Shown: one piece after another, positions 4,531 through 56,709 of the stretch | How positions within the stretch are numbered: position 1 is the stretch's first letter | How the letters are laid out: the number at the start of each line of letters is the position of its first letter | Origin: Psammoneis japonica | Taxonomy: Eukaryota | Reading direction: 5' to 3' | DNA length: 64,000 bases | Assembly (NCBI GenBank): GCA_008632985.1 | Contig: QPGO01000099.1 | Span: 165,679-229,678, forward strand | The notes under the pieces: model-generated | Told to the model about the DNA's origin: nothing | Database searches by the model: none | What the model saw: the letters and a program-made list of their open reading frames with translations, nothing else | Position numbers and translations under genes: made by a program

Positions 4531-4649
4531 TGTTGGAAACTCGAGCTCTGACTCTAGGCTGATATTCTCTGTCGTATCGATGCCTCTTCTCCGTTGTGGT
4601 TGTTGCCATCAAAATCTGAAGTCTGAAGCATGATGGTGGATGCGATGGG

Positions 4650-6100
4650 TGGATTTTGGATTTTCGCTGATTCGCCTGCGGTTCCACGTGTTGGAGGGAG
4701 GGAATCTTGTTTCAAAAACATCAATTTTCGATGACGTGTCATCAAATCATGAATGGATCTGTAAATACGAGATTCCATCACTGACCTGTTGGCAGCAGGC
4801 AAAACGAAAGAGACAAACCATCATGATCAAAAACTTTTGGTCAATGAAGAGACGGTCTGATTCATTCAACGCACAACACAATGATGGTACACACCTTGTC
4901 TCTCCATAAGAAGTTGCATCCAAAAGTTGTGTTCTTCTGATTTGTTTCTTTTGGAAGCACATCATGTCACACGTGCCCGCTTCTTGTGCATTTTTTCTGC
5001 ACACAGGGCAGCACTGCACAGACGTGCTCATCTCTCCTGAAAACAGTGGCAGAACACATTAACCATGAGAGAAACAACAGCACCCCCAAGCAGAGTTGTC
5101 AGGGAATTGGATGGCTGGTGCCACTGCCCAAGTTGGGGTGGTGTTGGAGGAGAGGAGGCACACACAGAAAGCTGCCACAAACACACACCACCCTTGCCTC
5201 TGTTTTGCAGACAGCCCACTTTCACCCTTTGGTGCAAGAAAAACAGAGCAGAGCCATGTCATTAGAATGGGTTGCCTTCCTTCAAGGTGGCATGGGTGCA
5301 AAAGTGGGCCCGATTCCACGTGCTCAGAACTTGGCACATTTTCTGCACAAATCGCCGAAGTCACCTTGCCAACTTGAACCCTCTTCCAGATGATGGAAAC
5401 TTTAAAATTTCACATGACAAAGTGTTCAGACAACTTAATTAGACTCCCCTCAACTTGTTCATGGAGAGAAGCTGCAATTTTCCACACATTCGTCGTTTGC
5501 TGCCACAGCTCTGACAAACTTGAACGTCGTGATTTTGGCATCTTTCTGATTAGATTTCGTGTGCATCTTCAAAAACGCATGGAAACTTGCAGCGCCTCTC
5601 CACAAACAAGTCAAGGGAAGTGCAGTTGAGTGGTTTGGCTCAGCACCCCAACATCAATGAGAGATGGAACATTTTTTGGCCTGTGCAATTCGCGCAATGT
5701 GTGAGTTCATTGAGCCTTTGACCATGATTCCAGCCCTTCTTGCTCTCCAGTTTGCTGGGGTCATTGCCCACCAAATGCAGCCATTGATGGCAGAGAGCGC
5801 AAACAGAGCTTCTGCTTTTTCCAGGCAGCTGCCACATTTTGCTTTTTGGCCAGAGCAACTGGTGCACTCCTCCATGAATGTGGCAGCTCAACTCCAACAG
5901 CATGGAGCAACAAAGCAAGGCACAGGGCCACACATTGGATGCAGCTGCATCTGGCAACAACCACACTTGTTTGTTGGTGGATGAAAAAGCATCTGGCAGC
6001 TGTGCTTGCTTGTCAATGACATCATCTGCAAAGGCCCTCACTTGCTGCAGCAGCGCTTGCCATCATTTTTTTTTCAAAAATCATGAGTTCTAAATAAAAT
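4650..6100. mobile_element. TpA-depleted degenerate repeat/TE remnant, family unassigned
   Basis: Near absence of TA, with TG/CA excess and overlapping Cys/His-rich, Tyr-free ORFs. One minus-strand frame reads LFALSAINGCIWW, weakly reminiscent of a transposase C-terminus. Confidence 0.5.
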
Positions 6101-18241: not shown

Positions 18242-18670
18242 GCTGTGTATTGGTGTTCCACCAAAAAGTGCCAAGTTGCACACACACAGACAAACGTAAA
18301 AAACAATTTTTTTTTTTGTTATCACAACACCCGTCACACCACTCTCACTAACTCTCGGTGTTATTTCTCATCAACCAAGCCACGCCCAGAGACATACAGG
18401 GGCGTTTTAGAAACGTCTTTGAACGGTCCATAAGGCTATAACGCGAAAGAGCGAATCTCGTACGTACTGCTAACGAGAATTGGCGAAAATTGACGCGCAA
18501 AACGTTGTTTTGTTCGTGTGAAATCGAGAAAGGTTGTTTGTTCGTACCGAATACCTCTTTCCCCAAACGCTACCTGCCGTCTAACAATCGCCTTTTGTGT
18601 CTTAAATAACGTCCTGTACTTGGTGTCATTGAAAACGATGGGGTACAAATAATATTCAGTAACCTGCCGG
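18242..18670 (+). repeat. ~430-bp inverted repeat, left (TA-retaining) copy
   Basis: Its reverse complement aligns essentially gap-free with 29885-30312. Confidence 0.95.
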
Positions 18671-18726
18671 ACACCGTTTCAGGAGCGCCAGAATACAGTG
18701 TTATCATTTCATTCCTATTCTGAGCC

Positions 18727-20835
18727 ATGAGTGGGAGGGCTCGACAGAAAAAGCGAACGACACAGTCGCTGCGTTCGCCATTATTGTCAAGCGAAGAGAG
18801 CGAAGAGGAAAGTCCCCAAGTTTCGAGGAAGAAATCGAAAAATACCAAACAAACCCGGATCATTCTTGATGACGCAGCTTTGAAGACCGCGAAAGTTCCC
18901 GTGGTGCTCCGACTTTCCGCCATCAATGGAAAGAAGAAGGCTAAATTCAATAATGACTTCTTCTTGGACTATGTTGAACATGATGAACTTGATTGCAGCT
19001 CCAATTTCCAAGACATTGAGCTGGCAATCGACGAAGCGTTGGCCAACAAGGAAGGAAGCATGAAGTTTGAGAGGTCGGTGGACAGTTCAGGCATTGCCTT
19101 CTGTGCACATTCTGAAGAATTTGCACAGGATGAACTCAAGACTGTTCCTTTGGTAGACAAGCAAGACAAGCTACGGGCTTTGAGCAATGATGCATCCTTC
19201 GGCAATGCGCTCAACCACATTGCTTGCCAAGAACTGAGCCGCTCCCGCCGCAGGGTGGACCGATGCATTCTTGATGTTGTCGTGCACATGAAGGAAAAGA
19301 AAGTTGTAAAAGCAAAGAAGCACTCTGGTGGCAGTGGCGGCACCAACAGGAATGGTGGGAATCGGGCTCCTGCTCCCAAAGCCAAGGAGAATGTCAAGGA
19401 TTGTGACACCAAATTAATTGTCGACACACTTGGTCCAGTCGTCAAGCAACTCGACGAGAAGACTGATCAGCATGTTGCAAAGATTCACGAATCAAACTGG
19501 GACATCCTAACGACAATTGAGATCCCCCCACGAAATGCATTTGAGCAAGAACACGGACTTGATCTCGATGCTTTCACAGAAAGAGAAGACATGCATGATG
19601 ACAACGACGACAATCCGAGTTGCTGCGAAGGCATGAAGCACCACATCATTCGTCGAATGATTTTTTTTTGAAGCTCGTGAACTTGATGGGTGCAAGAATG
19701 GCACTGTTGCAGGTGCCTGCATTGGGAGCAAATCCAAACTGTTCGTGTGGATGAATGGGGCAAAATGCAAAATGACCGAGTTGAACAGGCGCACCTCAAA
19801 GGCGTGGGAGATGCTCAATCAGAAGCGCAAAAGCAAGAAAGACAAGAACATCAGAGAGTTGCCATTGGCGTTGGCATGATTGATTCCAACAAAGACGTTG
19901 CACATGACCCAGCTGGTGAGCCGCAGCATGACGACGAAGGTGTTGAAGAAAATGATGCGAGTGAGTTGAGTTCTCCACAGAAGATGGCACCAAAGAATGG
20001 AAGCAGCAAACAATCTAGAGCTGCTTCACAATCGCTGTGCATGGAAGCCAAAACCTTTGCAGAAAAGCTCACAGGAACACCGTGCTCTGATCTTTACGAC
20101 GCTTTCACAGAAGAGGCATTCAATTGCTTCCAGAGTGCCATTGCGTCAGATCCAGAATGCCGCAAGCCAGATCCAGCATGGGCGACATGGCAGCTGGATG
20201 AGAATGACATGGGAACATGGCCTTCAGTGAGTGATTTTGATTTCATCGCCAAAGAGAAATTCATCAAGCGCAACAACGGCAAGCGACCTGAAAAGAGTGC
20301 GCACCCCAGAGTGGATGGCAAGCGTCCGAGCAAAGACGGCTCCTCTGATCTCACACCAGAAGTCCGGGCGACTCTTGAGTGGGGTCGTCAGTCTGAAACC
20401 CGCACAATCAGCGGCAACGCCAATGAAGAGTTCGTCATGCCCGGAACAGCAGTGTTCAAGTTCACTCGGGGTGATGAGAGTGGGGCTGGCGAACCAACCG
20501 CAACCATGAAAGATGCAAATGAGACGATGAAGAGTCTCCGGAAACGCTGCACCCAAGATCGTACCCACAAAGTGTTCTGCATCTCTCAATCAGATCTTGA
20601 CAGATTGAAGGCAAAGGAAATGGAGTGGCAAGTCACCATTGGTCCTGACGATGAGTGGGTCGCCTTGCACTCTGCCGTTAAGACTCTGACGACGAAAGAC
20701 ATTTTGGAGGCACTGCAAACAAAGCAGAGGCAGAGGAATCCAATGAAACTCAAGTTTGATCTGGTGAAGACACACCAGGATGAGGAAGGGGCTGTCCTTT
20801 GCGACAGTGACTGGCAGTGGTGTAAAATGGGGTGA
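18727..20835 (+). pseudogene. Degenerate TE-associated ORF of unknown function, frame break at the T-run near 19661-19669
   Basis: Consecutive 314- and 381-aa ORFs just inside the left IR, nearly Tyr-free, convergent with the DD34E transposase. Confidence 0.55.
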
Positions 20836-20899
20836 TGGGATGAGAGTGGGACAATGTTTGCTGTAGAGTGGCAGCAGTGGAAGTTGCAGTTGCATCTGC

Positions 20900-21790
20900 T
20901 CTTTTCTGCATTTGTGCCAGAGGCGGCGCCTTTTGCTCGCCGCCGCCAAGACGATCATCCGCCTCTGCTTCCTCTTGCGCATGATGAGATGTTGTCCCAG
21001 CTGTTGCAAGTCATCTTCCTTCTCCTCAAGAGAGGCAACCGAAGGAAAATGTTCACAGCCTGGAACACGGGAATGGCGACAAAATGAACGAGCCATTGCA
21101 GGAGCGACACTGTCAAGAGCATCAAGGTGATGCTCGAACCACCGGGTGCTCCCATGTCGCTTCAAGTGCGCCTTGCAGCGACCAAACATCATTTCAATCG
21201 GATTTAGATCAGGGCTGCATGGTGCAGCACAGATGATTGCAGCCCCCATGGCTTCAATCATGTTGATGGTGCAATCAGAATGGTGTGTCGACGCATTGTC
21301 CAGCACCACGATGGACCTCGGCTCACCCTCACTGCAGCTGCCGAGGCATGGAACGAGTTTCTCTTCTGCCCACAATTCAAATCGTTCCTGATCCACAGCT
21401 CCAATGAGGGGATCCCTCTCTTCATCTCCTGAGTTGCCTCGCTGAACAATGTCACACGCTTCCTTCATAAAGCCGTTGATGTCACAGGCAGCAAGCAATG
21501 AGTGCCGAACGCGTTTGTCAATCTCGAAGGACGTTGACCGAACAGGAGTTTCACCCCTTTTTGACCACCAACGCCTCTTTCGTGCTGCACTTCGATCCTT
21601 GTGAGACTCGTCCAAGAATGTCAGCATGTCGGGTTCATGAGCCGCGGCTTGCAAAGCGTTGGGGTGCCTCGCCCTTTCTTCCTCGTCCATTTCGATCGCC
21701 TTGTCGGTTGCGACTTGAAGTGAGTGCCCCACGTCCTTTCTGAGTTTCTCCCATGTCTGACTTGGACTCCACTTTTTATTGGTTCCTCCT
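20900..21790 (-). mobile_element. IS630/Tc1/mariner-type DD34E transposase, catalytic part, mutated
   Basis: FLDES...VVLDNASTH-(34 aa)-APCSPDLNPIE. The family consensus is PYSPDLNPIE. Upstream in frame is KKWSPSQTWEKLRKDVGHSLQV. Confidence 0.9.
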
Positions 21791-22008
21791 TTATGGCAGG
21801 AACTCTGGACACGAAGTGAGGAGGTGTGGAACCCGGGCTGGTTTGGATTGCCATGCGTGCGAGCATCAAATTTTAGAGCTTTGATCTTTGCTTGCCACCA
21901 ATCATTTTTTAAAAAATTCGCACGCTTAAATGATGGGTTCGCAATTAATTAATGTGCGACGTAATTCTACATTTATGTTTTAACATTGTGTCAAAAAATG
22001 GCGATTTA

Positions 22009-22398
22009 GACGCGTTCCAAGTCTAGGTGGGACCTCGCACTACTGAACTGTGACATCGACAGTTTTTTGAATCACGTCGTATGTCGCGCACGTAGATTTC
22101 TACGTGATTTTTTTGATATTTTGTGTCATTTTACGGTACACTTATTGAGCGATCCGTCCAACAACTTTTGACATTTTTTGTTACAGCGCGATTCTATAAT
22201 GTCTTAAGAATCGCGTAGGGCAGGTGCATTTGCAAAAACGTCGAGTGGTAAGAGGCATAATTGTACCACAAACTTGGCCGTTTATTTGATGTTGAAGATA
22301 AATATATCCATTAATTAAATTCTCGTACTACGGAGCTCGCACGTAGAATTCTACGGGCCCAATGTCACACGGAGTCCCACCTAGGGCTGGAACGCGTC
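22009..22398 (+). mobile_element. 390-bp MITE, ~25-bp TIR (GACGCGTTCCA..CTAGGTGGGAC), 4-bp TSD TTTA
   Basis: ttta|gacgcgttcc ... ggaacgcgtc|ttta. It is a near-identical inverted copy of 27474-27863. Confidence 0.92.
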
Positions 22399-22698
22399 TT
22401 TAATTCTTGCATTCGTGCATGGACACATTATAAGAAGAGACGTGGGTTTCCCCTTTTTTGATGATTCTGGTGTGATTGTTCTATGGTGGATGACAAGAGA
22501 ACTGTCCTGACGTTGTGCATCACTGGTTGCTGAGTGTGTCTGTCATTGCAATGATGCACTGACATCGATTTGTTAGATTGGACCCTTTGTTTTCTGTTGG
22601 TTGTTGCCGGGCACGCCTGCAAGCCCGCGTGCAAAGCTTGGAACATTTTCCAAAATGCAGAAACAATTCCCATGTGCAGCACCAAAATGTTCTGTGTG

Positions 22699-25600
22699 TC
22701 AATTGGACTGCAAAATGTCATCATGCTGTTCATTGGTGAAGCACGTGACACTTTTTCCTTCCATCAACCGGAGCAGGGCGTCACACCCGTCCGGCAGTCT
22801 GCACAGACTTAAGTCTCTCTTCAGCGGTTGCCGAAGACACAGACCATTTCTGGTCTCAACCCTGGAGAGCATGACACATGCCCAGTTTTGTGTGTGGCTC
22901 CAGCCACGCACAAACACATTGTCGACACCGCTTCCTTGAAGCTTGTGTCCTGCAGTCGCGTTGTTTGTTGTGAATGGCAATTGGGTTGCTTTCAGTCCGA
23001 GCACATGTTTCTCTTTTTCCTCAGCTGTCATCTGTTGGGTTGGGTCCTTTAAACAGGCTTTGAAAGTGGAAGACTCAGGCTTGAGCGAAAAGGTGGGTGG
23101 ATCGATGCTTTTGTTGCTGTGCTTGAGTTCTGCATGATCCACCTGGGATGCTGTGACACCTCGAATGGATGTTCCACAGTCCAAGACCACTTGCGATGAA
23201 TGTTCTCCTGGTTTCAGCACGACTTTTGCCACAGTTGCTTGTGTTCCGTTCGCAACACCATTTGCCACATTTTCATTGCACGGGATCATGACTCTACATC
23301 CCTTGTGTGTTCGTAATGCTGGATCAAGCCTGCCAGATTGCATTTCCACATCGCTCTCTCCACAGTTTTTCCAGAATGTTTTGTACACCGGGAAAGGCCT
23401 GTGCTGTCTTGCTCCGTCACGCACTTGTAAATCGTCACTGAAAATGGCTGGAGAGTCCAAGACTTCTCCATCTCTTTGGTGCAGTCTCTTGGTCCTTTCC
23501 TCAAACAAGGCTGTGTTGATGGAGTCTCTTTCTTTGTTTCTGTGTGATGCATGTTCAATGTTCTCTGGCAGTTGTTGACCCTTTCTCACTGCTCTTTCAT
23601 TGATTTTGTCGATGTCTTCGAGAGTCGCTTCGCCATCTCTAAATCGTTTTAGCAAACTGCCCCATTCTGGATCCTCACTGAATCTGTGCATCCCATGCAA
23701 CTGGATGTGGCAGTTCACCCATTCCTGGAATTCGGCACAGGTCTCCTTGCACAGAGGGTGCATTCCGTGTCCAACTGGCTCGAGTTGTCTCAGGTCCCCT
23801 GCAAACACCACATTTGCACCCCCACAAGGCCTGTCTAAATTGGATTTCACGACAGATGGATTAGCATGTAATTTTTCTAAATCTCTTCTGCAAGCAAATG
23901 ACATTTCGTCGACAATCAGCAGACGAGTGTCACTCCAGCTTTCCATTTGTGTTTCTGTTGTTTCTTTTTTCCTGTTTAGATGGGCAACTCTGTGAATGGT
24001 GTCTCCTTTCAGAATTGTCGCTGCAACTCCGGTCATGGCAGTGACGGCAATTGTTTTTGCAGTGAATGGTCGTTCAATTGAAGAGCAACATTCTCTTGCG
24101 CACAAAACAACAAGATCGACAACAGTGGATTTGCCACTTCCTCCTGCTCCATGCAAGAAACAAATTAACTGTGTGCCTCTTTGTTCTCGCACTTCAACCA
24201 ACTTGGCCAATCTCCTGCACTCTTTGTTAAATTCGTGTCCAATTCCTCCTCTTACATCACCACTTGCTTGTTCTCCCAGAGCGTCTTTGCAGTGCGTCAA
24301 AATGAAAGTTCCTGCCATGACTTCAAAAGCACGACTTTGATGTGGGTCTAGCTTGGCTTTTTTTGACCAATCAACTGAGCTTTTGGCTGAGCCGTTAGCT
24401 TCAAGGACATCAACGGCTTCTTCCGAATTAGTTGTGTCTTGGAAAGATCGTCGAATGCGTCCAGTCTTGGTCAGTGATGCTCAAACTGCATCTCGTTTCC
24501 CAATTTGAGGCACAGGTTCTTCATCTGCTTGCATGCTGTTTTCATTGTCTTCTTCATTAACCTCAATTTCTGGTGGCTCCATTGTTTCTACGACAGGGAC
24601 CGAATTGATGACAGTGTTTTGATCTGAAGAAGTCATGCACATGCATGCCAAGTGCTGACATCCTGCAAGGTGACTTCCCTTCTGTCTGGTTTGTTTGCCA
24701 CTTAAATTCGTGGGTGCGGCTGCTTCATCATTTGCTTCCATCCCGTCTTTGTGTTCATGGTTCACCAATTCATCTAGAAGAGCATCAAGCATTTGTCCTT
24801 GCAAAGCCGTTCCGATGTCGTCTTCGGTGTCGCTTTCGCACCTTGTGCTAAATTCATTGTCGTCCGATGCATGCTCGCGGGCAGTGCGTTTAAGAAAATC
24901 TGATGTGCTTTTTAATCGCAGACAATTAGATTTTGCATCTTGCAGATTTTGCAAGAATTTCAGATTTTCTTCAGTGACGATTTCTCTCTCCACCGCTTGA
25001 CGGAATGANNNNNNNNNNNNNNNNNNNNNNNNNNNNNNNNNNNNNNNNNNNNNNNNNNNNNNNNNNNNNNNNNNNNNNNNNNNNNNNNNNNNNNNNNNNN
25101 NNNNNNNNNNNNNNNNNNNNNNNNNNNNNNNNNNNNNNNNNNNNNNNNNNNNNNNNNNNNNNNNNNNNNNNNNNNNNNNNNNNNNNNNNNNNNNNNNNNN
25201 NNNNNNNNNNNNNNNNNNNNNNNNNNNNNNNNNNNNNNNNNNNNNNNNNNNNNNNNNNNNNNNNNNNNNNNNNNNNNNNNNNNNNNNNNNNNNNNNNNNN
25301 NNNNNNNNNNNNNNNNNNNNNNNNNNNNNNNNNNNNNNNNNNNNNNNNNNNNNNNNNNNNNNNNNNNNNNNNNNNNNNNNNNNNNNNNNNNNNNNNNNNN
25401 NNNNNNNNNNNNNNNNNNNNNNNNNNNNNNNNNNNNNNNNNNNNNNNNNNNNNNNNNNNNNNNNNNNNNNNNNNNNNNNNNNNNNNNNNNNNNNNNNNNN
25501 NNNNNNNNNNNNNNNNNNNNNNNNNNNNNNNNNNNNNNNNNNNNNNNNNATGACGTTGGTTTTGTCATGAGCATGAGCACTCCAGAGCAATCTTCTTACA

Positions 25601-28600
25601 GTTTCCGCTGCATCAGAAGAATGCTTTCTAAGCTCTGTCGCCAGTTTGTCAGTGACATTCAGCACTTCTTGGCAAGTGGCAGTGTCGTCTTTTTGGGTGT
25701 CTTTGAGTGTGTGCTCAATGGTGCACTGTGCAGAGGGGCCTGGCATCAGAGTTGCGATGTTTGTGTTGCATGTCAGCTTAGATCTGCTGATTGCAGGGCA
25801 CGACACATTCTGGAAAGCATCGCATTTTCTCCTCTTGGGGACAATTTCTTTGACGCATCTACAACGGAATGAGCCANNNNNNNNNNNNNNNNNNNNNNNN
25901 NNNNNNNNNNNNNNNNNNNNNNNNNNNNNNNNNNNNNNNNNNNNNNNNNNNNNNNNNNNNNNNNNNNNNNNNNNNNNNNNNNNNNNNNNNNNNNNNNNNN
26001 NNNNNNNNNNNNNNNNNNNNNNNNNNNNNNNNNNNNNNNNNNNNNNNNNNNNNNNNNNNNNNNNNNNNNNNNNNNNNNNNNNNNNNNNNNNNNNNNNNNN
26101 NNNNNNNNNNNNNNNNNNNNNNNNNNNNNNNNNNNNNNNNNNNNNNNNNNNNNNNNNNNNNNNNNNNNNNNNNNNNNNNNNNNNNNNNNNNNNNNNNNNN
26201 NNNNNNNNNNNNNNNNNNNNNNNNNNNNNNNNNNNNNNNNNACATGCCACAAACTCTGGGTTTGTCCAGCATTTAGTGCAATGAGGGCAATGCGCGAACA
26301 TGCCATTTTTTGATTTCTGACCGTGCTTGTGCCTCAGGTGTCGAAGCTGCTGATTGCTGACCATTTTAGGCACAGTGCGACAGGCAAGATTAACAGTGCA
26401 ATCATGATCAAAAGTTTCTGTGATGGACAGTCGAGTGTAATCCTCGCCACATGTCAACCCAGTTGTGCAGATCCGACTGGTCAGTTTGGACAGTGTTCTT
26501 TTACCATCACGCCTAAAATCTCCATTGTCAGAATGCAGATTGTCTCTTGCTGTGTTTGTGTCTTCAAACCATGCCTGAATGTGACCGTGTGCCGAGAGTC
26601 TACCTTGTTCTTCCATTGCAGCTGTGAAAGCGGAGGGTCTCCCTGTGTAGAATTCAAAATCTTCTCTGGGTGAATTCCTTTTTAAGTCCCATCCTGTTGC
26701 TTCTTCTGTGACGATTTCCAATGACATTTCGAGCGCAAAAGCCGTGACACCTGGGTGCTCCACACGAAGCTCGTTTCTTGCCTTGGCCTTTTCGGTCAAT
26801 TCTTCATCCGACATTTCTGTCACATCTCTGCCTTTGTCGATGAGCATGTCCGCACAAATTTGAACTAAAAAGGAATTGGCATCATCGGGGCTTGTCGTTG
26901 AAAATGCTCCAGGTTGTCCAAAGTGGTGTTGGCAGGTTTCAGCATTTCTTCTCATTTTTTTTTGCTGCTTCATTTGTGTGTGGAACAGATGCCGACACCA
27001 CATCCACTGCACTTAAGAAACGATGTCCCAATGCGCAATTCCTGCGTTCACCGGTCTGTCTGTCACACATGGCACGGTCGATGTCGTCTTGTGTCAGTTC
27101 ATTTGAGAATTGTCTGGCTTGATTTTTGTCTCTTGCTTTCCATCCAGCACTGTGCACCATTCGTTGCTTCACAGTCAGATTGCACAGGGTCAGAACAAAG
27201 AGTTGCTTGTGGAAGTGGGGCTGAGAAATGCGGGCCAAGTGATCTGCGCAATGTGCTAGATTTGTGCAGTCGGCGAGACTCCCATCTTCTTTCATTCTTG
27301 TTTCATTGATGCCGCCACGCCCACAAGGAAATTGCAGCAAGCAAGCATTTGCCAGGTTGTTGTCCTTAAAGTCACTGACTGATTCTTTCAAAAGATCAGC
27401 TTTGAATTCAATGTCAAAACCGCTTGCAGCTGCATCGTGCACCAAGTCTTTGAAGCTGTCTAAATTACGTTGTGACGCGTTCCAGCCCTAGGTGGGACTC
27501 CGTGTGACATTGGGCCCGTAGAATTCTACGTGCGAGCTCCGTAGTACGAGAATTTAATTAATGGATATATTTATCTTCAACATCAAATAAACGGCCAAGT
27601 TTGTGGTACAATTATGCCTCTTACCACTCGACGTTTTTGCAACTTCGCCTGCCCTACGCGATTCTTAAGACATTGTAGAATCGCGCTGTAACAAAAAATG
27701 TCAAAAGTTGTTGGACGGATCGCTCAATAAGTGTACCGTAAAATGACACAAAATATCGAAAAAATCACGTAGAAATCTACGTGCGCGACATACGACGAGA
27801 CTCAAAAAACTATCGATGTCACAGTTCAGCAGTGCGAGGTCCCACCTAGACCTGGAACGCGTCTTGTCCACCAGTTGTTGAAGAAACGGCACCATTGGGG
27901 AAATGAACACTGTGGGACTCCGTGGTTTCAATGTTTGCATTTTCGCTTTCGTCCAAACTGCCATTGTCCACTAAAACTGGATTCTGCAAATTGCTTCGCA
28001 CTTCCTCTAGATCGATGTCTTGATTCATCCAATTCTCGTGGTGATGGACAAGCCATTCCAGTGCTCTCATTGCACAGTGAGTCCTGATTTTGTTCTTTTG
28101 TCTGGCCATTCGCCTTTGCTCTGGTGTCATTTTGCCGGATGCCAACACAACCACATTTTGATGAAGGTTCAACACGTCAAAGTGCATGATGGTGCGGGCG
28201 ATGCTCTTCATGTTTGTCTTGCAATGGGAAAGACCACCTTGCAGTTTCTTCTGTTTGCCACCGACAAAACTGAAGCAGCAGCCATGTGTTTTCACAGGTG
28301 TCAACAAAGCTGGCTCTACTTTGGCAAGACACGATAATTCAGGTGGTGGTGTTCCAAAACAGCAATTGTTTGCTGTTGCGCACAGAGGCACAGAAGCAGT
28401 GCAGAGACTTCTTTTGCAAGGCCTGCAACAAGTGAATCCTTCAGACCTTCTGTTGTCGTTCGGAACAACATGTCGAGCTCTTGGCAAAAGCAACAGGTCG
28501 GAAATCCATCGGCAATCCCGTGGAATGTGTTCGTCATCGATGCGACAACAATCGTGCGGGTCTTCCGATGCTTGGTTCCATTCAGATGGAGTTGACAGGT

Positions 28601-28976
28601 GTCTGGTTTCTTTCAATTTGTTGACAGAAAGTCGAGCAGTCTGAGACGGTTTTGACAATCTGTCACACACCAAACAAACCCAAGGGATGTGCTCGTTTCC
28701 GTTCCTGCAGCGAAGCTTTTCAAAACGTCTGTTTGTGTTGTCTTGGTGCCTGGTGTTGCTGTCATCCACAAGACAGCTTGTGACGGCAGGCTCACACTGC
28801 GCAAAGATGAGTTGAACCAACAACGCAGCAATGGGTGCACACCAGATGACACGATGACCCATGAGACTTGCAATGAGAACAATCTGAGCAAAGTCAATGT
28901 GATCAACAGATGGCACGTTGTAGATCGCTCGTCTCGATTTGCTTGACATGTCATCGTTCGCTCGTGCGCTCTGCAT
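22699..28976 (-). mobile_element. Helitron-like Rep(HUH)-PIF1 helicase element, degenerate, interrupted by a MITE and two N gaps
   Basis: N-terminal ATANN..FGTPPPELS.L..VE and QFPCGRGG; PGAFSTTSPDD; HUH motif EEQGRLSAHGH; Y2-like QCTIEHTLK. PIF1 motifs are GAGGSGKS, TAMTGVAA, LLIVDEMS, FAGDLRQLEPV, VANGT, GHKLQG and CVMLSRV. Confidence 0.85.
27474..27863 (-). mobile_element. 390-bp MITE copy, 4-bp TSD TTGT, inserted in the Helitron-like ORF
   Basis: ttgt|gacgcgttcc ... ggaacgcgtc|ttgt. It splits the Rep ORF between the 27846-28976 and 26939-27445 segments. Confidence 0.92.
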
Positions 28977-29419
28977 TGGGATGCACTGCTGACAGCAGCG
29001 GCATCACACCGGTGAGGTCATGAACGTCAGCGGGAACGACATCTTGTGGAAGTTCAATGTGCGATGATGTGTCTTGCAGTTGAAGTCGGTTCTGCCCACT
29101 GCGACTGCACGACGTTTGTACGACTGTGACGCCTCATGTCTCGATCTGCTGCCAAGTGCAACAGATGTGTGTTGTTGCAGTGTGTCCTCATGATCGGCAC
29201 GTTCCTTTCATCCCACTTGTGAAATGGAAGGCGTCCGTCGATTGGGTGCAACAGCCCTGCGGCAGCATGTGCTGCACACATTGTGTGGGATGCATGCCAG
29301 ACACATGTTCTTGCTGACGCAGCACAGCATGTTTCAACGAATTCTGCTGTGCAAATCCCACTCATCATGCAACCGTGGCTGGATGTGAGGAACTGCTGGA
29401 TGGCCATTGCATCAGCAAT

Positions 29420-29700
29420 GTCATTCATTCTCAGTGCTGGCTCATCCAAACACAGCCCAGGTTCCTGATCAACGACGTTCTTCAAGATGGCGGCATGCCG
29501 GTGTGTCCACAAGTGTCGCTGGTGCCCTGTGCAAGATCTTGTCATCCAACCATCAGTTTCAGCAGGAGTCTCACCATGCTGAAGATGATGATTGAAATGT
29601 CTTTGACATGTTGAAGGATCATGGGTGTCCCGAGGAAGACAGAGATTGCTCGCTTGCTTGCACAGGTTGGAGAGCTTGGTTTTCGCGCCAGCTCCGACTT
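29420..29700 (-). pseudogene. Probable N-terminal (HTH) half of an IS630/Tc1-like transposase
   Basis: HGETPAET...ILKNVVDQEPGLCLDE..LRM resembles the ..P.LYLDE.. HTH segment of IS630-like transposases. Confidence 0.5.
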
Positions 29701-29884
29701 TGACAATGTCTGAGCCCAACCCGATTAGAACAAACGGAGATGACAGCCTGTTGAAAACCACGGCGATTGTAACGCCGGACCATTGGGTCAATCTTCATGG
29801 TGTTGCTTTGCTGATTTCCCAAAGCAAGAGTCCGCTCTGATTGCTCTTTCATTGAGTGGATGATTTCCGTGACAAAATGCCCCC

Positions 29885-30312
29885 CCGGCAGGTTGCTGAA
29901 CATTGTTTGTGCCCCATCGTTTTCAATGACACCAAGCACAGGACGTCATTTAAGACACAAAAGGCGATTGTCAGACAGCAGGCAGCGTTTGGGGAAAGAG
30001 GTGCTCGGTGCGAACAAACAACCTTTCTCGATTTCACACGAACAAAACAACGTTTTGCACGTCAATTTTCGCCAATTCTTGTTGGCAGTGCGTGCGAGAT
30101 TTGCTCTTTCGCGTTGTGGCCTTGTGGACCGTTCAAAGACGTTTCTAAAACGCCCCTGCATGTCTCTGGGCGTGGCTTGGTTGATGAGAAATAACGCCGA
30201 GAGTTGGTGAGAGTGGTGTGACGGGTGTTGTGACAACAAAAAAAAATTTGTTTTTTACGTTTGTCTGTGTGTGTGCAACTTGGCACTTTTTGGTGGAACA
30301 CCAACACGCAGC
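29885..30312 (-). repeat. ~430-bp inverted repeat, right (TA-depleted) copy
   Basis: It differs from 18242-18670 almost only at TA and CG dinucleotides. Confidence 0.95.
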
Positions 30313-30524
30313 TTGGACAAAAGGGTTTAGTCCCATGGGGGAATGCGCCACACGTGCGACTGTTGCCACCATGGCAAAACCTGTGGTTGCTCCACCACCA
30401 TCTTGGCACTTTTTGGTGGAACACCAACACGCAGCTTGGACAAAAGGGTTTAGTCCCATGGGGGAATGCGCCACACGTGCGACTGTTGCCACCATGGCAA
30501 AACCTGTGGTTGCTCCACCACCAT
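30279..30524. repeat. 123-bp tandem duplication (30279-30401 / 30402-30524)
   Basis: The unit cttggcactttttggtgg...gctccaccaccat is repeated apparently exactly. Confidence 0.9.
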
Positions 30525-33099
30525 CGCACTGCCGCAGAGGGCAACACAGCACGCACTGACACAGCAAACAGCATGCCAACAACACATTCCGCAATCACTT
30601 TTGGGCAATTGTTGGCAAATGTGACCAAACATTTCATCTTTTCGAAAGAGGAACCTCCAAGGAGCTGCTGCAACAAGGTTGCTTGCCTCCTTTGCTGGTG
30701 TGGTGCTCTTGACAAAAAGACCGCCAGTGATTTTGCCGCAACTTCTCATGGCACAAAAGAGCAAAAAACACTGGCTTGAGAGCTGCATCTCTGCCAGCAG
30801 TGCTGAAACAACCAAACCAACCCACACTTTTGTCGCACTGAGTTGCAGTGCCAAAAAAGTGGCTTCAGCTGGCCGAGCTCATTGCCACTGGAGAGGACAC
30901 TGAGCAGCATGCCAGCCAAAGCAACAGAGGATTTTTGACCCCTGTCATTGTTGAAAACTTGTGAGCTCTCATCATCTCAATTTTTGGAAAGCTTCCCCAG
31001 CACCCAGCAGCATTTTGTGCACATGTCACCGGCGGCTGCCCAGGGGGCACGTTCTTGGTGTGCTCCCTCTCCCCCCCTTGAGACCCACCTCCTTTTTGTC
31101 AGAATGTTGCCAAGCATCTGCTGCAAGCTCCTCATTCTCTTGCAGTCAGGAGAAGCCCAAATGTGACCCAGTCAAAATGTGACAGCTGTGACTCATGCTT
31201 TGCCTGCCACTCTGAAGAGCAGCGCATGGCATGTCTCTTGAGCTGCGCGCCTTGTTCCCTCAAGCTTCCTCTCTGATGTGTGCTCAGCCCAAAACAAAAG
31301 ATGGTCAGGAGGCCTGTTGCATGGAGCAGCAGATGTCAAACATGCAGCCATGGAAGGCAGGCACCAAGGACTCCAGCAGCATGTTTTGGTTGCTCTGTGT
31401 GGCCATTGTGTGGTGTGCCAAGAGCTGTGGTCAAAAGGCCAAAGCACTGGTGGCTGCAAAGACAGCCAAAGTGACAACAGAAAGCAACATGAAGCAAGTG
31501 TGTGTTTCAAGTGTTAGAGGCAGACTCTGTCTTGACCAAGCATGATGTTGTCTCAGCTTCTTGAGATGGCAGCAATCTTTTGAGGGAGTTGAGGGATTTT
31601 GACTCAAGATTTGTTCAGCAACATTGCACTGCTTTTGGCTCAACTGCACAGTCATCTTTGAGACAGAGCTTTGCTGAGAAAATTGGAGCTTTTTTTACAG
31701 TGGGCACAAACTGCACTGCCATGTCTTGGCCACCCCAGGTCAAATGCCCCTGAGTGGCTGCACCAGCAATGATGTGCAAACTGCGTTGTTGGGCCACATG
31801 GCTCTTGCTGGCATCATCACAAAGGCAGGTTGTGTGGTGGAACTTGCACCCACGTGTCATCACTTTGAAAGACCTTGCAAATGTGACTCAAGCACTGTCA
31901 TGGCACAGCAGCTCAGCCACAGTGATGCCTTTGCATGGTCACAGCCCACATCTCCTGCCAGTCAAAAGTGCTTTGCACACCTGGTTGAGTGTGGGGTGGC
32001 AGAGTGCTGGTTGCCGATGCATGGCATCTGGGGCAGACTTGTCATTGCTGCAAACACTGAGCAACATTGACCCCTGCACCACTTCAAAAGATTCACCCTC
32101 AACAGACACTTTTTCCAGACTTGGGTGCACAAACATGAAAAAAATGCCCCTTTTTGAATGAAGCACACAGCCCAAACTGCAAACACTGAGCACCATGAGC
32201 CCACACCACTTCAAAAGACCCGCCCTCAACAGACTTGGTTGTTCCAGACTCGGGTGTGCAAACGTGAAAAAAAAACCCTTTTGCGCGAAACTTGCAGTCC
32301 AAACTTTTGGCACCACCCTCAAAAGCAAAAACACAACAATCTTCAAATGTGGTGTCATGAACACATGCAAAAAGGTCTCTTGTGTGTGCCCTGAAAAAGT
32401 CTTGAATGGGTGACAAATTGTGTTTTGTCAAAACACTTTGAGCACAAGTTGCTCTCAATGAATTAAATGAGACACTCATTGGCGCTAAAGCTTGAGAAGA
32501 CGTGAGAAGAAATTGAACTTAGCCCATGCACAATGGCACCCACTTTGGACCCTTTTTTCACTGCTTTGCCAACATGGATGACTGGAACACTTGCATCAGT
32601 TGATGGTGTGGATGAAACACACACAGAAGTGGAAAGGAACTTGTCCTCAGAGGCACCAAATGGTGAGTGAAATGAGGCCAAAATGTTGTTGCCAACAGAT
32701 TTGTCTTGCTTCTTTTGCTGTGCTGCAGCCTGCACCAAGCATTTTTCCTGCTGTTGTTGATGACACAGACTGCACAAAAAAAGCAGGCCATCATCATTGC
32801 TGAAAGCCATGGCCATTCTGGCTGCAATTTGCTTCAACAACACAGCCCTTGCACTGGGAAGTGACATCCTTTCCAGACTGGAGGTGTGCAAAGCTGCACT
32901 GCACCAGCCTTGGCACATTTGTGGCTGGACAAAACCTGTCAGAAAAGTGTTGCAAAGGGAGACAGCTTCAAAATGAGTGCAGCCCAACATTGCTGCACAA
33001 GCCACAGCTGCTCAATGCCTGCAGCAAGCTTTGTTCAAAAATGAGCTTGTTTGGCTCTTCTGGCAAGGTTTCTTCACCACCATTCAAAAGAACAAGGAG

Positions 33100-34540
33100 C
33101 TGACCCCTCTCTTGTTGAAGAAGTCAGCGCCAATGTGTGCACTCATGCTCAACCCACCTCACCCATTGCTGGTGGCTAGACAAAATGGGCTTCACCAACA
33201 ACTTACAGCCCAGTCATCTGAGGCTTGGGTGCCCCTGATCAAAATGTTTCTGGTGTTCAGAGTTTTGTGGATGAATCACTCTTTGTGCTGTGCATTGAAA
33301 AACAGAGCTGGCAAGAAAGCGTGGCACTCTGCATGTTGGACAGAGGCAAAATTGCAAATTTTTTTGGAGACACCCACACAAATGAAAAGGATTTGCTTCT
33401 TCCGTTTGCCACTCAAGCATCATTTCACAAGTTCAATGCAAGTCGTGCAGTTTTGTTTCACTCTGCAAATGCAAGAGAACAGGCGCATGCTGAGTCGGCC
33501 GGAAAAGTGCTGTGAAACAACATTGCCACATTCGCAGCAAGTGGCAGCCCAAAAATGTCTGCATCAAAGGGGGAATTGGTTTTGTTGAAGTCCAAGTCTG
33601 TGTCCAAATCTGTTGTTGCAAACTGCAAAGTGCTCGCGACAGGTGTTGACAAGGTGGGTTGGGACCCAGTTGCAATGGCTGACCCTGTTTGCATTGTCGC
33701 AGTCCTTGCACATGAAATGATTTGGCATGCAAGCTGGAAAGGAATTGACAAAGACCGTGGTTGCATTTTTGTTTCTGTTCCAGTTGCTTCTCAGGAAGAA
33801 TCACAGTCCAAGGATGCCAATGGATGCAAAATTTTCACTGCTGCTTTTGAGGCCATGGTTGGTCTGGATCCCAAATTACGTCAAGACGTCTTGTTTGTGA
33901 TTGAAGAGAGTGACAGACTCAGAATGCCCTTGAAGGATGCCAAGTTCCCTCCTCTTGTCCTTGACTCCTTTGTGCTTCCTGATTCATTGCCATTTGAAAT
34001 GAAAAATGACATCATGAAAATGCAAAGTTCTTCACAGCCACAAAGAGGAAGGGATGATTTTAGGGAGTTGGTTGAGCACACAGAGGGTGAAAAAAAAGAA
34101 TGGGAGGCCAGGTGTTTCTCATCAACAAGCTCTCAAGAAGGCTGGTGATGTGTGGGATGGGGTGGATCTTGGAAATTGGCTGTGCAAGCAACGGGTGGCC
34201 AAGTGGAAGGGGAAACTGGATGCTTCTTGACAAAGATGACTGGAGAAGACTGGCGTTGAATGCTGCATTTTGGCTGAGTGACAGGAAGCCATGTTTTCAT
34301 TTCTGGGTCAATTCAATGAACGGGAGGGACATTGCAGGGTGCCTCAATGACACATTGAAAATGGAAAGAGACTTGGAGTTTGGATGGGCAATCAAAAGCA
34401 AGCATGGAAGGCGGGAAAGCTGGAGAACAGCCGCATGAACCGACTGCTGGATCTTGGCATTGTTGTTGCTAGAAAGCAGTCTCTGCAATGTGGGAACTTT
34501 GTTGGTCTCGTGTGTGTTTCTGTTTTAAAGAATGAAAACA
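33100..34540 (+). pseudogene. Hypermutated, frameshifted paralogue of the HA-domain helicase at 129-2249, including 3' flank
   Basis: ANCKVLATGVD, AFEAMVGLDP.LRQDVLFVIEESDRL and QKQAWKAGKL..NRLLDLG are shared. GY->GC occurs twice and the stop region gagtagt->aagcagt. Confidence 0.9.
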
Positions 34541-42863: not shown

Positions 42864-43099
42864 GAATGGCTCGCTATCGAAAGACGTTCGAAAGCTGTTG
42901 CTCTATCTAACCCAAGCACTGAAAAAACCGACACAAGTTCTCAAACTTCACCAAGGTATGTGCTTTCTCTCTGATCTATTGAATGCAAATGCAAATCTTG
43001 TTGGCGGATACCGGTAGAGCGGGCGCATCAAAACCACACGCATCGCATCGCACCCGCATCAATTCACGAGCGCGACTGAAAAATGACGGGAAAGCGAAA

Positions 43100-44250
43100 A
43101 ACGCGACCCATGACACGACTGAATGCAGCACAACAACCATCCCAGTGCAGTGGCCAGCAGCAGCGATCACAGCTGGTGACATGGCACCTCTGATGCTGTG
43201 GTTCCAGCTCTCGTTCGTTGTGTTGACAATTTGAAATGAAGCTCGAACAATCACTTCACAGAAAAAAGCATGGGCTGATGACACCAGTCATCTCCTCCCG
43301 CAGCGAGGTGTGGTCATTGTGCATGTTGTCCACAAACAATTGCCACGAGTCAGACCCGAGTGCTTGGGTCTTTGATGGTGTTTTTGTGCAAATGATTGCT
43401 TGCATCTTTGGAAGTCAGTTTGAGGTGAAATTACAACCACCCATCACAGAGCAGTCTCAGGGCCTTGGCACGGAGACAACGAGGCAGAGAGGGTGTTGCT
43501 TCTTTCAAAGTGCACAAGGGTGCCACAGTGCGCCAAGAGCTGGAAGAAGCTGATGTGTTTGGGGTCCGAAGCATGCCAGAGGTTTTGGCAAAAGATCAAG
43601 CAATGCATCCTGTGCCAGCAACGTGCAGTGTCCTTTCAACCTTTTGGGGAAGCACGCGCTCCCCTGGCTGGCTTGTGGCCAGTGAAGTTGTCAACACAAG
43701 GTGAGGCCAAGACACTTGCACTCAACACCCAACTTCTGGGTGACACAACACTCTTTTGTGGCTGCACTTGTTTCCTTGGGTCCAGCAAACGCAAAGCTTT
43801 TAAGGCTTTGGCATCTTGGCAAAGTGAAGAGAGTGGAGTGGGCTCAGAAGTCATGCTGCAGGCACCACTTGCACAGATGGCTCAAGTTGGGCACCTTCCA
43901 AGTTTTGAGCTGGTCTTCATTGCAAAGGTTGGCTGACCAGGGTCATGGCAAGACTCTTTTGAAGCACAAGGGTGTTTGGGTTTGGTGAGTCTGCATTTGC
44001 AACTGACTTTCCTGCACAGACTGAGCTGCTTTCAAGCACCAGAGTCACATCAAGCCAGTGGGCCATGCTGTTCTTGCCCCAAGAGTGTCATTTCCTGTGG
44101 TTGCCACATTGCAAGTGCCATGAATTTTTTTCAGATGGTTGAGCTGTTTTGGCCAGATTCGAGCCGAGAAAAGCAGCAACTGGTCTGCCTCAAAGGCAGA
44201 CTCGGATCCCTGCGGACACTCAAGATCTTGAGTGTCTGCATGTCTTTAGA
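43100..44250. pseudogene. TpA- and CpG-depleted degenerate segment; left edge homologous to ~53760-53960
   Basis: cgagcgcgactgaaaaatg.cgggaaa..aaaaacgcga and cagctctcg.tcgttg..gctcgaac.atca are shared with the 53.8-kb region. Composition is shifted to TG/CA. Confidence 0.6.
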
Positions 44251-46791: not shown

Positions 46792-47915
46792 TGTGCGGAG
46801 TGAAAAAGTGAAAACGGTGGGAATTACAGTATGATGCGTGTAGCTGCTGTCTTTGACTCTTATCTTACGGATGTGTGATGTGGTTGCAGGAGGTTTAATA
46901 GGGCCCTACAATGCCGTAAGCGGAGAGACATCATCATAGCGCCCAAGCGGAGACACCATAGCCCACAGGCGGATAGGTACGCACCGCGCATATGTGTTCT
47001 GAGCTTCAAAACGAGTCGAACGAGTCGGAAATCAGTCGTTCGAAGCTGTGCTTGAGCTTTGCCTGCAACATCGAAAATCCACGTTGGTTTACATTGTGCT
47101 GTTGAAACTTTCAATCACTGGCACTAGAGTCAGTGCTTCCTTTCCTTCCTCTCATCTGAATTGGTTCAAGTCCAGACACATCTCCAAACAGTGTGGGGTT
47201 TGGCCCCATGACAGCAGCATCGCAACGAGTTTTTTTCTTGCCTTGACCATCTTTGGTGGCTCCATGTCTGATGCACATCTGTCTTCTGCAGGATCTCGCT
47301 CTTCCACCTTCTCCTCTTCTGTTGGAAAATCACTTGACACACCATTCTTGCTGCCATCAGCACTTCCTAAAATGGCAAGTTCGCCACCAACACCACCGCA
47401 TCCAGCAGCTGTTCCAGCGGGATCAACTTCAATGGATGTGACTGTGCTGCTGTGAATGGAAGGAACAATCGCCTCTCCATGACCCCCGCCCCCTTGGTGG
47501 GATCCACAAGCTGCATGACAAGACCTCCTCTGCTGTCCCCACAACTTGGTGCCAACAAAATTGCCATGATTGGGAGAGACAGATGACCGTTTCTGGGCAA
47601 CTTCGCCAGCATGCGTGGAATGTGAGGCACAACGCAAAAGCACGGAAGCTCTCACTGAGCCACAACTCCACTTTGATGATTGCATGCTCTTTGCGGCTTT
47701 GATGGCAGAATTTTGGTTTGTCTTTTCCTTCGACCAGTGGCCCACGTTCCGGTTTCCAAGCCCAGCGGCAGCCAAGTGTGACAGACAACCTGTTCATCAT
47801 CATCAGCGATGCACCAATCAAGCCCAGCAAGCCAAGCTGCAATCAAATCAGCACGAGGCACTTGGAAAAATGGGAGAAACATGGGCTTGCCATCACCAAT
47901 GCTTTGCATTCCATG

Positions 47916-48347
47916 TGCAGTGTGCACGCAGACAAAAGGTTGTTTTTGTCACGCCCTTTGTGACATTTAAAGGCTGTGACACGTCGCCGTGATGCATTGG
48001 CTCTTGTCAGTGGCTGTGTGTTGCACTCCTCCCCATGTGTCACGCGTCCATGCAGCTCTTTACTGACGTGTGCTGACACTGCACGGTTTTGGTGGAACAG
48101 TGTGGGCATGCACAAAGGAACACACAGAACTGCACAGAGTTTTGCGCGTTCGACAGTGATCAACGTTGCTGCAGACAACTCCCACTCAGGGTTTCGAACC
48201 CCTGGCCTCCTGCCTGGTGGTTGCGATGTGCCACTCCGCTGAGAATTCACAATGCAGTGTGCATGCAGACAAAAGGTTATTTTTGTCACGCCCTTTGTGA
48301 CATTTAAAGGCTGTGACACGTCGCCGTGATGCATTGACTCTTGTCAG
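47916..48347. repeat. 95-bp direct repeats (47916-48010, 48253-48347)
   Basis: tgcagtgtgca.gcagacaaaaggtt...gatgcattg.ctcttgtcag occurs twice with 3 mismatches. Confidence 0.9.
48179..48246 (-). other. tRNA-like/Pol III element (pseudo-tRNA or SINE head)
   Basis: Minus strand has CAGCGGAGTGG (A box if CA was TA) and GGTTCGAAACC (B box) in a T-arm stem CAGGG/CCCTG. There is no clean cloverleaf. Confidence 0.5.
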
Positions 48348-56362: not shown

Positions 56363-56709
56363 TCTGAACCGTATCAAGCAACCAATGTCAACAACAACCC
56401 AAACCGCAATGGCAAGTTTGCCTCATTTTTTCTCGCGAAACCAAGCCATCTGTCTTTTTGTCGTAGAATTCTACGTGGAGTTCAGTACTTGCGTCACGCA
56501 CCTTTTGCTTCAACGTTATGCCACCCGCGCTTTTCTCGCGCGAAAAGAATGCGCGATCTTTTCGAACCCATCGACTCGTCAAATCATCACGCGCAACACG
56601 CATCACGATCGCTTCTCGCATCAATTTTTCTGCACCGCATCAACGATGACGTAGGATCGAGCCCCGCCGAGGACTCATAGAGCTACGCCGTCACTGATTG
56701 AAGCTCCCA

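Follow-up and report, generated by a model that had tools for sequence, protein, structure and literature searches.

Near-saturating change of TpA to TpG or CpA in sharply bounded, transposon-bearing blocks of an algal contig

To our knowledge, mutational genome defence before 2026 was known essentially as cytosine deamination, in the form of fungal repeat-induced point mutation (RIP) and of APOBEC in animals. Here we describe a 64-kb stretch of Psammoneis japonica DNA (contig QPGO01000099.1, called the window throughout, with 63,094 non-N bases) in which TpA has been lost almost completely to TpG and CpA across nine sharply bounded blocks, and we centre the account on what is likely a single Tc1-like transposon at 18242-30312 that carries a nested Helitron and that is mutated at one end and spared at the other. 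The closest described system is that of Bigelowiella natans, where, in mutation-accumulation lines, two viral regions integrated in the genome gain mutations at about 1000 times the rate found elsewhere in it, and where 230 of the 231 mutations in these regions are A>G or T>C, all 230 of them at TpA (Mettrop et al., bioRxiv 10.64898/2026.01.13.699255). That preprint proposes an ADAT2-like enzyme, citing the DNA activity of amphioxus and trypanosome ADAT2, and its main text, as far as it is available, mentions neither CpG, diatoms nor Helitrons. An earlier reading of the window from its letters alone (the sequence-only reading) had stated that it knew of no described pathway for such a change, a statement that the TpA-only hypermutation reported for B. 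natans, in the available text of the preprint, has overtaken; in a full-text literature search covering diatoms and other groups, that preprint was the only account of such hypermutation. The window indicates a process of the B. natans type in an apparently different supergroup, much stronger and acting on ordinary transposons.

Inverted arms, the split transposon and the depleted blocks

The clearest record of the process comes from a pair of inverted repeats, which an independent repeat search of the window also recovered. Their composition is given as the observed/expected dinucleotide ratio (O/E):

18242..18670, minus strand: arm A, likely the left terminal inverted repeat of the Tc1-like element; essentially unmutated, with 24 TA, TpA O/E 0.70 and CpG O/E 1.35
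29885..30312, plus strand: arm B, likely the right terminal inverted repeat; hypermutated, with 4 TA and TpA O/E 0.14, inside a depleted block

Aligning the reverse complement of 18242-18670 (arm A) with 29885-30312 (arm B) gives 429 columns with one 1-base gap and 28 substitutions, all but one of which are transitions; read from arm A to arm B, they are 14 A>G, 9 T>C, 2 G>A, 2 C>T and the single transversion. The 24 TA of arm A become TG at 12 places and CA at 8 and are retained at 4, so that the earlier estimates of about 20 changed and about 4 surviving TA prove exact; each of the four TA in arm B is also TA in arm A, and none is unique to arm B. Although the TA columns of arm A make up only 48 of the alignment's columns (11%), they carry 20 of the 28 substitutions (binomial P = 1.2e-13). 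The other eight comprise 4 of the 27 CG in arm A that read TG or CA in arm B, 2 CG in arm B that stand opposite CA in arm A, one further transition and the transversion, which agrees with the earlier description of the residue as mostly exchanges between CG and TG/CA (6 of 8). Set against 8 differences in 380 non-TA columns (2.1%), the conversion of 20 of 24 TA (83%) amounts to an excess per site of at least about 43-fold, a lower bound. Arm A lies outside the depleted blocks and its TpA O/E is close to background; since it lies outside the mutated domain and arm B inside it, the difference between the arms is a direct record of the process.

The arms bracket a transposase gene that is present in two pieces, with a Helitron between them:

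20593..21948, minus strand: C-terminal part of a DDE_3 (Tc1-like) transposase, from about homolog residue 97 onward (Pfam PF13358, E 9e-16), TA-depleted
29393..29794, minus strand: N-terminal fragment of the transposase, about homolog residues 1-90/130 (tblastn of 28 homologs, e.g. P0388 residues 1-87, E 5.6e-24)
22483..29003, minus strand: nested Helitron splitting the transposase, with DUF6570, a Rep region and a PIF1 helicase; homologs of about 1900 aa align over 22.7-28.9 kb
27846-28976, minus strand: Helitron DUF6570 (Pfam)
25552-27012, minus strand: Helitron Rep region, broken by N runs
22699-24318, minus strand: Helitron PIF1 helicase (Pfam, E 5e-16)
25711..25725, minus strand: Helitron Rep motif, Y-x-x-K-Y in homologs and C-T-I-E-H here, each of the three changes being a single TA>TG or TA>CA

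Among the 102 transposase homologs mapped onto the window, 28 are split into an N part at 29794-29393 and a C part at 21912-20920, on the same strand and colinear, and the inverted 429-bp arms enclose this gene, with arm B 91 bp upstream of the N-terminal piece. Read most simply, and this is likely, these features are a single Tc1-like transposon at 18242-30312 with the arms as its terminal inverted repeats and the Helitron inserted in its transposase. The dissimilarity of the open reading frames (ORFs) next to the two arms had suggested two separate elements, an interpretation overturned by the homolog mapping, which finds one split transposase. A point against the single element is that the flanks outside the arms end in AT on the left and begin with TT on the right, with no TA target duplication seen; the one-element reading rests on geometry, and the exact termini are uncertain, given that no such duplication was seen and that arm B contains the start of a 123-bp tandem repeat. 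This repeat, at 30276-30525, has two copies that are 99% identical, and the outermost part of arm B consists of its first 37 bases. Two TA-depleted ORFs without a Pfam match, one of 315 aa (18724-19668, plus strand) and one of 382 aa (19687-20832, plus strand), are located between arm A and the transposase and run opposite to the latter; they may be cargo or another nested insertion. We also placed the contigs of run X1, a single sample, on the window at 80% likeness, and their summed depths suggest that the genome holds roughly ten copies of the arm sequence. Within the Helitron, the Helitron_like_N match at 26242-27012 (minus strand) is weak, at 24 bits under a cut-off of 28.9, a PDB search with the Rep fragment returned no match, and two N runs of unequal length inside the Rep region (25009-25549 and 25877-26241) leave part of the Rep domain unseen.

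The contrast between the arms recurs along the whole window. Sliding TpA and CpG ratios, a check proposed with the sequence-only reading, resolve nine depleted blocks with sharp edges that together cover 20,448 of the 63,094 non-N bases, about a third. Within them TpA O/E is 0.06, as against 0.58 outside, and TA is entirely absent from certain 500-bp stretches; for CpG the ratio is 0.49 (0.21-0.75 between blocks) as against 1.00, while CpA and TpG each reach 1.67. ApT and the remaining dinucleotides keep values near those outside, as does ApA (1.25 within and 1.18 outside). This last pair of values bears on error-prone synthesis of the Pol eta type at WA motifs in repeats, a mechanism that the sequence-only reading had suggested and that would account for A>G at the established WA hotspots: AA is not depleted in the blocks, near-saturating conversion is confined to TA, and we give Pol eta next to no weight. 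The following blocks, as delimited on the dinucleotide map, enter the argument below:

18975..21776: depleted block 1, the interior of the Tc1-like element
27847..34470: depleted block with the 5' part of the Helitron, the N-terminal transposase fragment, arm B, tandem repeats and a degenerate helicase copy; TpA O/E 0.04-0.06, CpG O/E 0.21-0.75
4575..6091: depleted block
43015..44247: depleted block
47125..50170: depleted block with a BEACH-domain fragment at 48795-49262
56517..60438: depleted block with a mutated fragment, at 58002-58099, of a miniature inverted-repeat transposable element (MITE) family; TpA O/E 0.04

The right edge of the large block, at about 34470, is no more than about 60 bp from where the duplicated helicase segment ends (34537). 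When the thresholds of the B. natans preprint are applied (TpA rho <= 0.43, CpA+TpG rho >= 1.52), 17 of the 64 1-kb windows pass, and runs of at least three such windows occur at 28001-34000, 47001-50000 and 57001-60000. Other repeat pairs repeat the pattern of the arms, in that the copy inside a block reads TG or CA where the copy outside reads TA or CG. The coding content of the blocks is altered to match: tyrosine makes up 0-0.8% of the mutated ORFs as against 1.8-2.6% of host ORFs, and cysteine and histidine are elevated. Because TAA and TAG have been lost, the blocks hold long spurious ORFs, and at 28001-34500, 47000-50200 and 56500-60400 ORFs of at least 130 aa overlap in several frames and have no family match. 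The BEACH-domain fragment (PF02138, E 4.6e-9) lies on the minus strand within its block, and together with the helicase copy it suggests that captured or duplicated fragments of host genes are hypermutated too. Relative to the sequence-only reading, the loss of CpG alongside TpA, the mosaic of blocks and the likely identity of the arms as ends of one split transposon are additions.

Direction of the change

A comparison of two arms has no direction of its own, and ordinary Neurospora-type RIP, C>T at CpA, would produce the same pairwise differences if it had struck arm A and left arm B ancestral; CpA>TpA is indeed the classical RIP preference. We therefore turn to the coding sequence, where protein homologs supply the ancestral state. 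Taking 150 Helitron homologs from a representative library, and counting as conserved those columns with at least 15 homologs of which at least 60% share one residue, we obtained 437 columns, at 368 of which the window agrees with the consensus. None of the 14 conserved tyrosines is kept; 9 have become cysteine (TGY) and 5 histidine (CAY). Other conserved residues have fared quite differently, with all 12 cysteines, 14 histidines, 10 tryptophans and 17 glutamines kept, as well as 28 of 29 arginines. The 69 departures from the consensus divide into 26 single TA>TG/CA changes, 6 CG>TG/CA, 5 other transitions, 16 transversions and 16 that need at least two changes. The transposase behaves in the same way: the window agrees at 88 of 111 conserved columns, and its 7 conserved tyrosines have all been replaced, 4 by cysteine and 3 by histidine. 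Across the two transposon proteins 21 of 21 conserved tyrosine columns thus read cysteine or histidine, and no conserved cysteine or histidine has become tyrosine, which is the reverse of what RIP would leave. In the Rep motif the two lost tyrosines are those that we take to be the catalytic pair of the Helitron Rep.

A host gene and its duplicate provide a second comparison, in which one partner is intact:

129..2249, plus strand: intact HA-domain helicase gene (ORF) of normal composition, the unmutated reference
33260..34537, plus strand: degenerate copy of that gene inside a depleted block, with TG/CA opposite TA (23) or CG (38) of the gene

In 1030 aligned positions, TA of the gene stands opposite TG or CA of the copy 23 times, and the opposite arrangement occurs once; for CG the corresponding counts are 38 and 4. 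Thirteen outgroup homologs, applied to codons with a single non-synonymous difference, favour the residue of the gene by 6:1 in the TA class and by 16:3, with 2 ties, in the CG class. The copy's losses include Y342C, Y362C, R330H, R333W and three arginine codons turned into stops.

The contigs of run X1 extend the comparison to paralogs of the transposon sequence. They differ from the window by 347 transitions and 70 transversions, and among the differences listed (40 of 417) paralogs alternate between TG and CA at no fewer than six places (26523/4, 26644/5, 26695/6, 26977/8, 27307/8 and 28690/1). Such alternation is what a single ancestral TA or CG, able to yield either TG or CA, would lead one to expect, and it is unexpected if TG/CA were ancestral. 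The only arm site among those listed differences is 29937, where arm B has C and arm A has T; six other contigs, with 321 of 375 depth units, have T.

Taken together, these data run counter to RIP. To the tyrosine columns, the 23:1 asymmetry of gene and copy, the outgroup ratio of 6:1 and the T at 29937 can be added the composition of the blocks, whose TpA O/E of 0.06 is the outlying value, arm A at 0.70 being near the genic background of 0.58. The RIP indices are likewise reversed, TpA/ApT falling to 0.01-0.09 and (CpA+TpG)/(ApC+GpT) rising to 1.64-1.90 in the most depleted 2-kb windows. We regard RIP as refuted for the coding parts and as extremely improbable overall. The direction claimed in the sequence-only reading, TpA to TpG/CpA by A>G on either strand and opposite to RIP, is thereby borne out, and where that reading had allowed that CA/TG might prove ancestral, the outgroup proteins side, by 6:1, with the TA residue of the gene.

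Some observations nevertheless weigh against this conclusion and should be set beside it. One of the seven outgroup-polarised TA-class codons favours the residue of the copy. Every class of difference between helicase gene and copy leans towards the gene, which is under selection, including transversions (17:9) and other transitions (12:5). The arms are non-coding, and only 1 of their 20 sites (29937) is polarised directly, the other 19 being polarised by analogy. Finally, the contigs of run X1 possibly derive from the same sample as the window's assembly and give no independent confirmation.

Targeting and candidate chemistry

Where the process acts is best seen from the sequences that it spared. 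Unmutated DNA at the left end of the Tc1-like element comprises arm A and about 300 bp internal to it, the block starting near 18975, and arm A sits upstream of an Mpv17/PMP22 ORF, 196 bp from its start (18046). Arm A is as repeated as arm B and, by geometry, belongs to the same insertion, yet it is unmutated. Two copies of a MITE are spared as well:

22008..22398, minus strand: MITE copy 1, about 390 bp; its ends carry the terminal repeat GACGCGTTCCAG..., flanked by a target duplication of 4 bp; TA and CpG normal
27474..27863, plus strand: MITE copy 2, within the Helitron; TA and CpG normal, inserted after the Helitron was hypermutated

The target duplications of the MITE are TAAA and TTGT, and the unmutated island matches the extent of the MITE within a few bases. 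Paralogous Helitron contigs lack MITE copy 2, joining 27469 to 27864 (with 4 shared letters) or 27466 to 27874. This family is the most abundant repeat in run X1, with a summed word depth of about 2e5 as against about 60 for apparently single-copy contigs, and the fragment of it at 58002-58099, inside another depleted block, is mutated. A search of the window against Rfam at gathering thresholds gave no match, and the unmutated islands are not known RNA genes. Metagenome scans with the Helitron helicase protein and a degenerate MITE end found no related loci. Among the 150 public Helitron homologs, 6 (P0376, P0351, P0365, P0275, P0276 and P0332) are poor in tyrosine or substituted by cysteine or histidine, having one or other of these at no fewer than three conserved tyrosine columns, and three contain less than 0.7% tyrosine; the signature of TpA loss seems to be present in other public sequences too.

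Repetition is not sufficient to attract the process, given that neither arm A nor either MITE copy is mutated, repeated though they are. Position matters, the domains have sharp edges, and DNA inserted later into a mutated domain can remain unmutated. That one terminal repeat is mutated while the other is spared beside a host promoter argues for targeting by position or chromatin over targeting by repetition or homology. The sequence-only reading had proposed a repeat-targeted process, of which the targeting is supported and the dependence on repeats is not: the most abundant repeat escaped in two copies, and arm A did as well. From the pattern of mutated and spared sequence we infer that silenced or foreign chromatin domains may be the target, that the process would act in bursts rather than continuously, and that an active promoter would protect the DNA beside it. 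On the strength of the sequence evidence, the signature, its direction and its domain-wise targeting are, as a whole, very probably correct.

The MITE islands also bear on the possibility that the pattern is an artefact of sequencing or assembly, with a modified base read as G or C or with paralogs mis-assembled. In its favour, the data come from one sample and from contigs only, and the region contains two N gaps. On the other hand, the edges of blocks and of elements fall together, the unmutated island within the Helitron corresponds exactly to the MITE there, and many paralogous contigs show TG and CA states independently. The variable length of the N runs points to a scaffolded short-read or Sanger assembly, in which base modifications would not be miscalled, and B. 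natans shows the same changes as heritable mutations, according to the available text of its preprint. We give an artefact very little credence.

The rate and context of the change constrain its chemistry. TpA loss is near complete in sequences whose proteins are still 79-84% identical to the consensus at conserved columns; it greatly outpaces background change and is also quicker than the loss of CpG, which varies between blocks, CG>TG/CA having affected 34 of the 54 CG for the helicase copy, compared with 4 of the 27 for arm B. Both strands are affected alike, the ratio of TG to CA products being 12:8 (arms), 11:12 (helicase copy) and 9:5 (Helitron tyrosine codons), and runs tests for strand-coordinated clustering of TG and CA were not significant (P = 0.16, 0.33 and 0.29). 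The 76 TA that survive within blocks, counted on both strands, are followed by A in 44% of cases as against 22% outside, and by T in 8% as against 28% (chi-square P = 1.2e-12). TTAA and CTAA are more than 3-fold enriched among survivors, ATAT and ATAC are about 6-fold depleted, and 3 of the 4 survivors in the arms are TAA. These contexts imply that TAT and TAC are good targets and TAA a poor one; TAT and TAC are preferred, TAG comes next and TAA last. Part of the surviving TA may have arisen by new mutation, which would make the preference look less sharp.

We propose that the near-saturating conversion of TpA to TpG or CpA over most of the Tc1-like/Helitron composite and at least six other blocks would be due to deamination of adenine to inosine in DNA at 5'-TA, with the next round of replication reading the inosine as G. 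Silenced or foreign domains of DNA, and not sequence repeats as such, would be the target of the enzyme. The loss of CpG would be a slower companion process, the deamination of 5-methylcytosine in the same silenced domains; the adenine chemistry, the chromatin targeting and the methylation are the parts of this scheme that we deduce from sequence patterns, and each should be read as provisional. Our guess at the candidate enzyme, by analogy, is a DNA adenine deaminase like ADAT2 or TadA. The tRNA substrate of TadA and ADAT2 has U directly 5' of the edited A (U33-A34), and inosine reads as G; a U before the edited A would explain the TA rule. A 3' preference for T and C over G also fits TadA/ADAT2 better than ADARs. 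No deaminase domain was found in the 85 ORF translations scanned from the window, which agrees with the earlier statement that the window encodes no candidate. Adenine deamination as the chemistry has, in our judgement, about an even prospect of being right.

Since TpA is palindromic, A>G on one strand is indistinguishable from T>C on the other, and a thymine-directed chemistry fits all of the sequence data equally well. In that case the T of TpA would be oxidised or hypermodified by a dioxygenase of the TET/JBP type, to 5-hydroxymethyluracil or a derivative, and then mispaired or misrepaired to C; 5-hydroxymethyluracil in dinoflagellate DNA is enriched at TpA. Against this, inosine is directly miscoding, whereas 5-hydroxymethyluracil mostly pairs as T, and the 5' U of TadA/ADAT2 substrates matches the TA rule. 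The B. natans preprint likewise favours an ADAT2-like enzyme. Thymine chemistry is in our view unlikely. A further route would be A-to-I editing of double-stranded transposon RNA by an ADAR, fixed by reverse transcription. It is an established property of ADARs that they prefer a 5' U (U>A>C>G, with G 3') and hypermutate RNA derived from repeats, and this route is raised in the discussion of the B. natans preprint, in its available text. The targets here, however, are DNA transposons, non-coding repeats and a piece of a gene, none of which is copied by way of RNA, and the changes are bounded in place and stop within one element, between arm A and arm B. Every target has a 5' T, AA is untouched, and the 3' preference is for T and C with A disfavoured, not for G. 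Editing through RNA is accordingly very improbable, and we return to adenine deamination in DNA as the reading that we favour.

Comparison with described systems

The protein matches and gene structure of the window point to a genome different from that of B. natans and probably of stramenopile origin. The best matches of the window's proteins are 40-67% identical, and those with names are nearly all from diatoms (Pseudo-nitzschia, Fragilaria, Thalassiosira, Skeletonema and Chaetoceros); one entry from a chlorarachniophyte transcriptome, at 60%, is among the matches. A collection of 5.8 billion sequences held no near-identical protein for those of the window. A preliminary NDH2 tree set the window among diatom sequences at low resolution, and a taxonomic look-up in the Atlas returned generic DEAD-box clusters only. 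A choline-transporter-like gene at 6916-8792 (plus strand) occupies two frames, and some 95 nt between profile positions 116 and 117 do not align; the gap is probably one short intron, introns being otherwise rare in the window. Several host ORFs contain in-frame tandem or internal repeats, at 36944-37111 (84-bp units), at 12542-13104 (294-bp units) and at 1491-2307 (repeats of the helicase HA domain).

Our broadest proposal, which we offer tentatively and would ourselves bet slightly against, is that a dedicated DNA-editing defence exists in at least two distant algal lineages, one stramenopile-like (this window) and one rhizarian (B. natans). Such a defence would be aimed by chromatin and not by homology, would be the main fate of transposons in this genome, would erase nearly every TpA soon after insertion and stop sharply at active host promoters, and would be followed by CpG decay driven by 5-methylcytosine. 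If this were true, it would amount to a second and independently evolved 'RIP' of opposite chemistry, one that destroys catalytic tyrosines even as it takes away the stops TAA and TAG, with an enzyme that would edit adenine in DNA naturally and in a sequence-specific way. A natural editor of adenine in double-stranded DNA with a strict TA rule would be of interest to the base-editing field, and any candidate enzyme must reproduce the preference of TAT/TAC over TAG over TAA. There is also a warning for annotation in these data, as depleted blocks, with no TAA or TAG, give inflated ORFs, 'proteins' free of tyrosine and over-prediction of genes.

Fungal RIP, as known from Neurospora and other Pezizomycotina, shares with the process described here its character as a mutational defence, the restriction to transitions in a fixed dinucleotide context, the mobile DNA that it strikes, the killing of ORFs and the sharp bounds of the mutated tracts. 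The two differ in that the change here is A:T>G:C and not C:G>T:A, so that TpA is destroyed rather than created and the stops TAA and TAG are removed rather than made, and in that the host is not a fungus. Repetition is, moreover, insufficient here, arm A and the MITEs being spared, with the caveat that both the MITE, at 390 bp, and the arms, at 429 bp, come close to the length limit of about 400 bp for RIP. The TadA and ADAT2-ADAT3 deaminases, and the base editors derived from TadA, resemble the process in having U 5' of the edited A and in yielding inosine, which reads as G; we know of no demonstration that this family naturally edits the DNA of silenced domains across a genome. The decay of CpG in methylated transposons through 5-methylcytosine resembles the CG>TG/CA changes in the same blocks, and it explains the minor component only, being slower and more variable between blocks than the loss of TpA.

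The nearest comparison remains B. natans, for which we draw on the available text of the preprint. The two have in common that transitions fall at TpA only and yield TpG or CpA on either strand, TpA being ancestral. In both, sequence depleted in TpA and enriched in CpA and TpG is clustered, and DDE endonuclease domains occur among the depleted sequences. In both, the mutated DNA is foreign or mobile; here it comprises a Helitron, a Tc1-like transposase and a MITE fragment, plus fragments of host-type genes. The hosts differ in gene structure, with about 8 introns per gene in B. natans (PMC13746701) as against long uninterrupted host ORFs, up to 774 aa, in the window. The rate of about 1000-fold was measured there in real time, while the figure of about 43-fold derived here from the arms is a lower bound. 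TpA O/E is 0.03-0.13 here, compared with 0.45 in a region from a nucleocytoplasmic large DNA virus in B. natans, and there are 3 clusters in 64 kb here as against 124 in 94.7 Mb, which is about 36 times denser if the window is typical. The targets here are transposons and a gene duplicate rather than inserts of giant viruses, and CpG is lost in the same blocks. What is new in the window is near-saturation on ordinary transposons, the coupled decay of CpG, the preference for the 3' neighbour and the contrast between the mutated and spared parts of one element.

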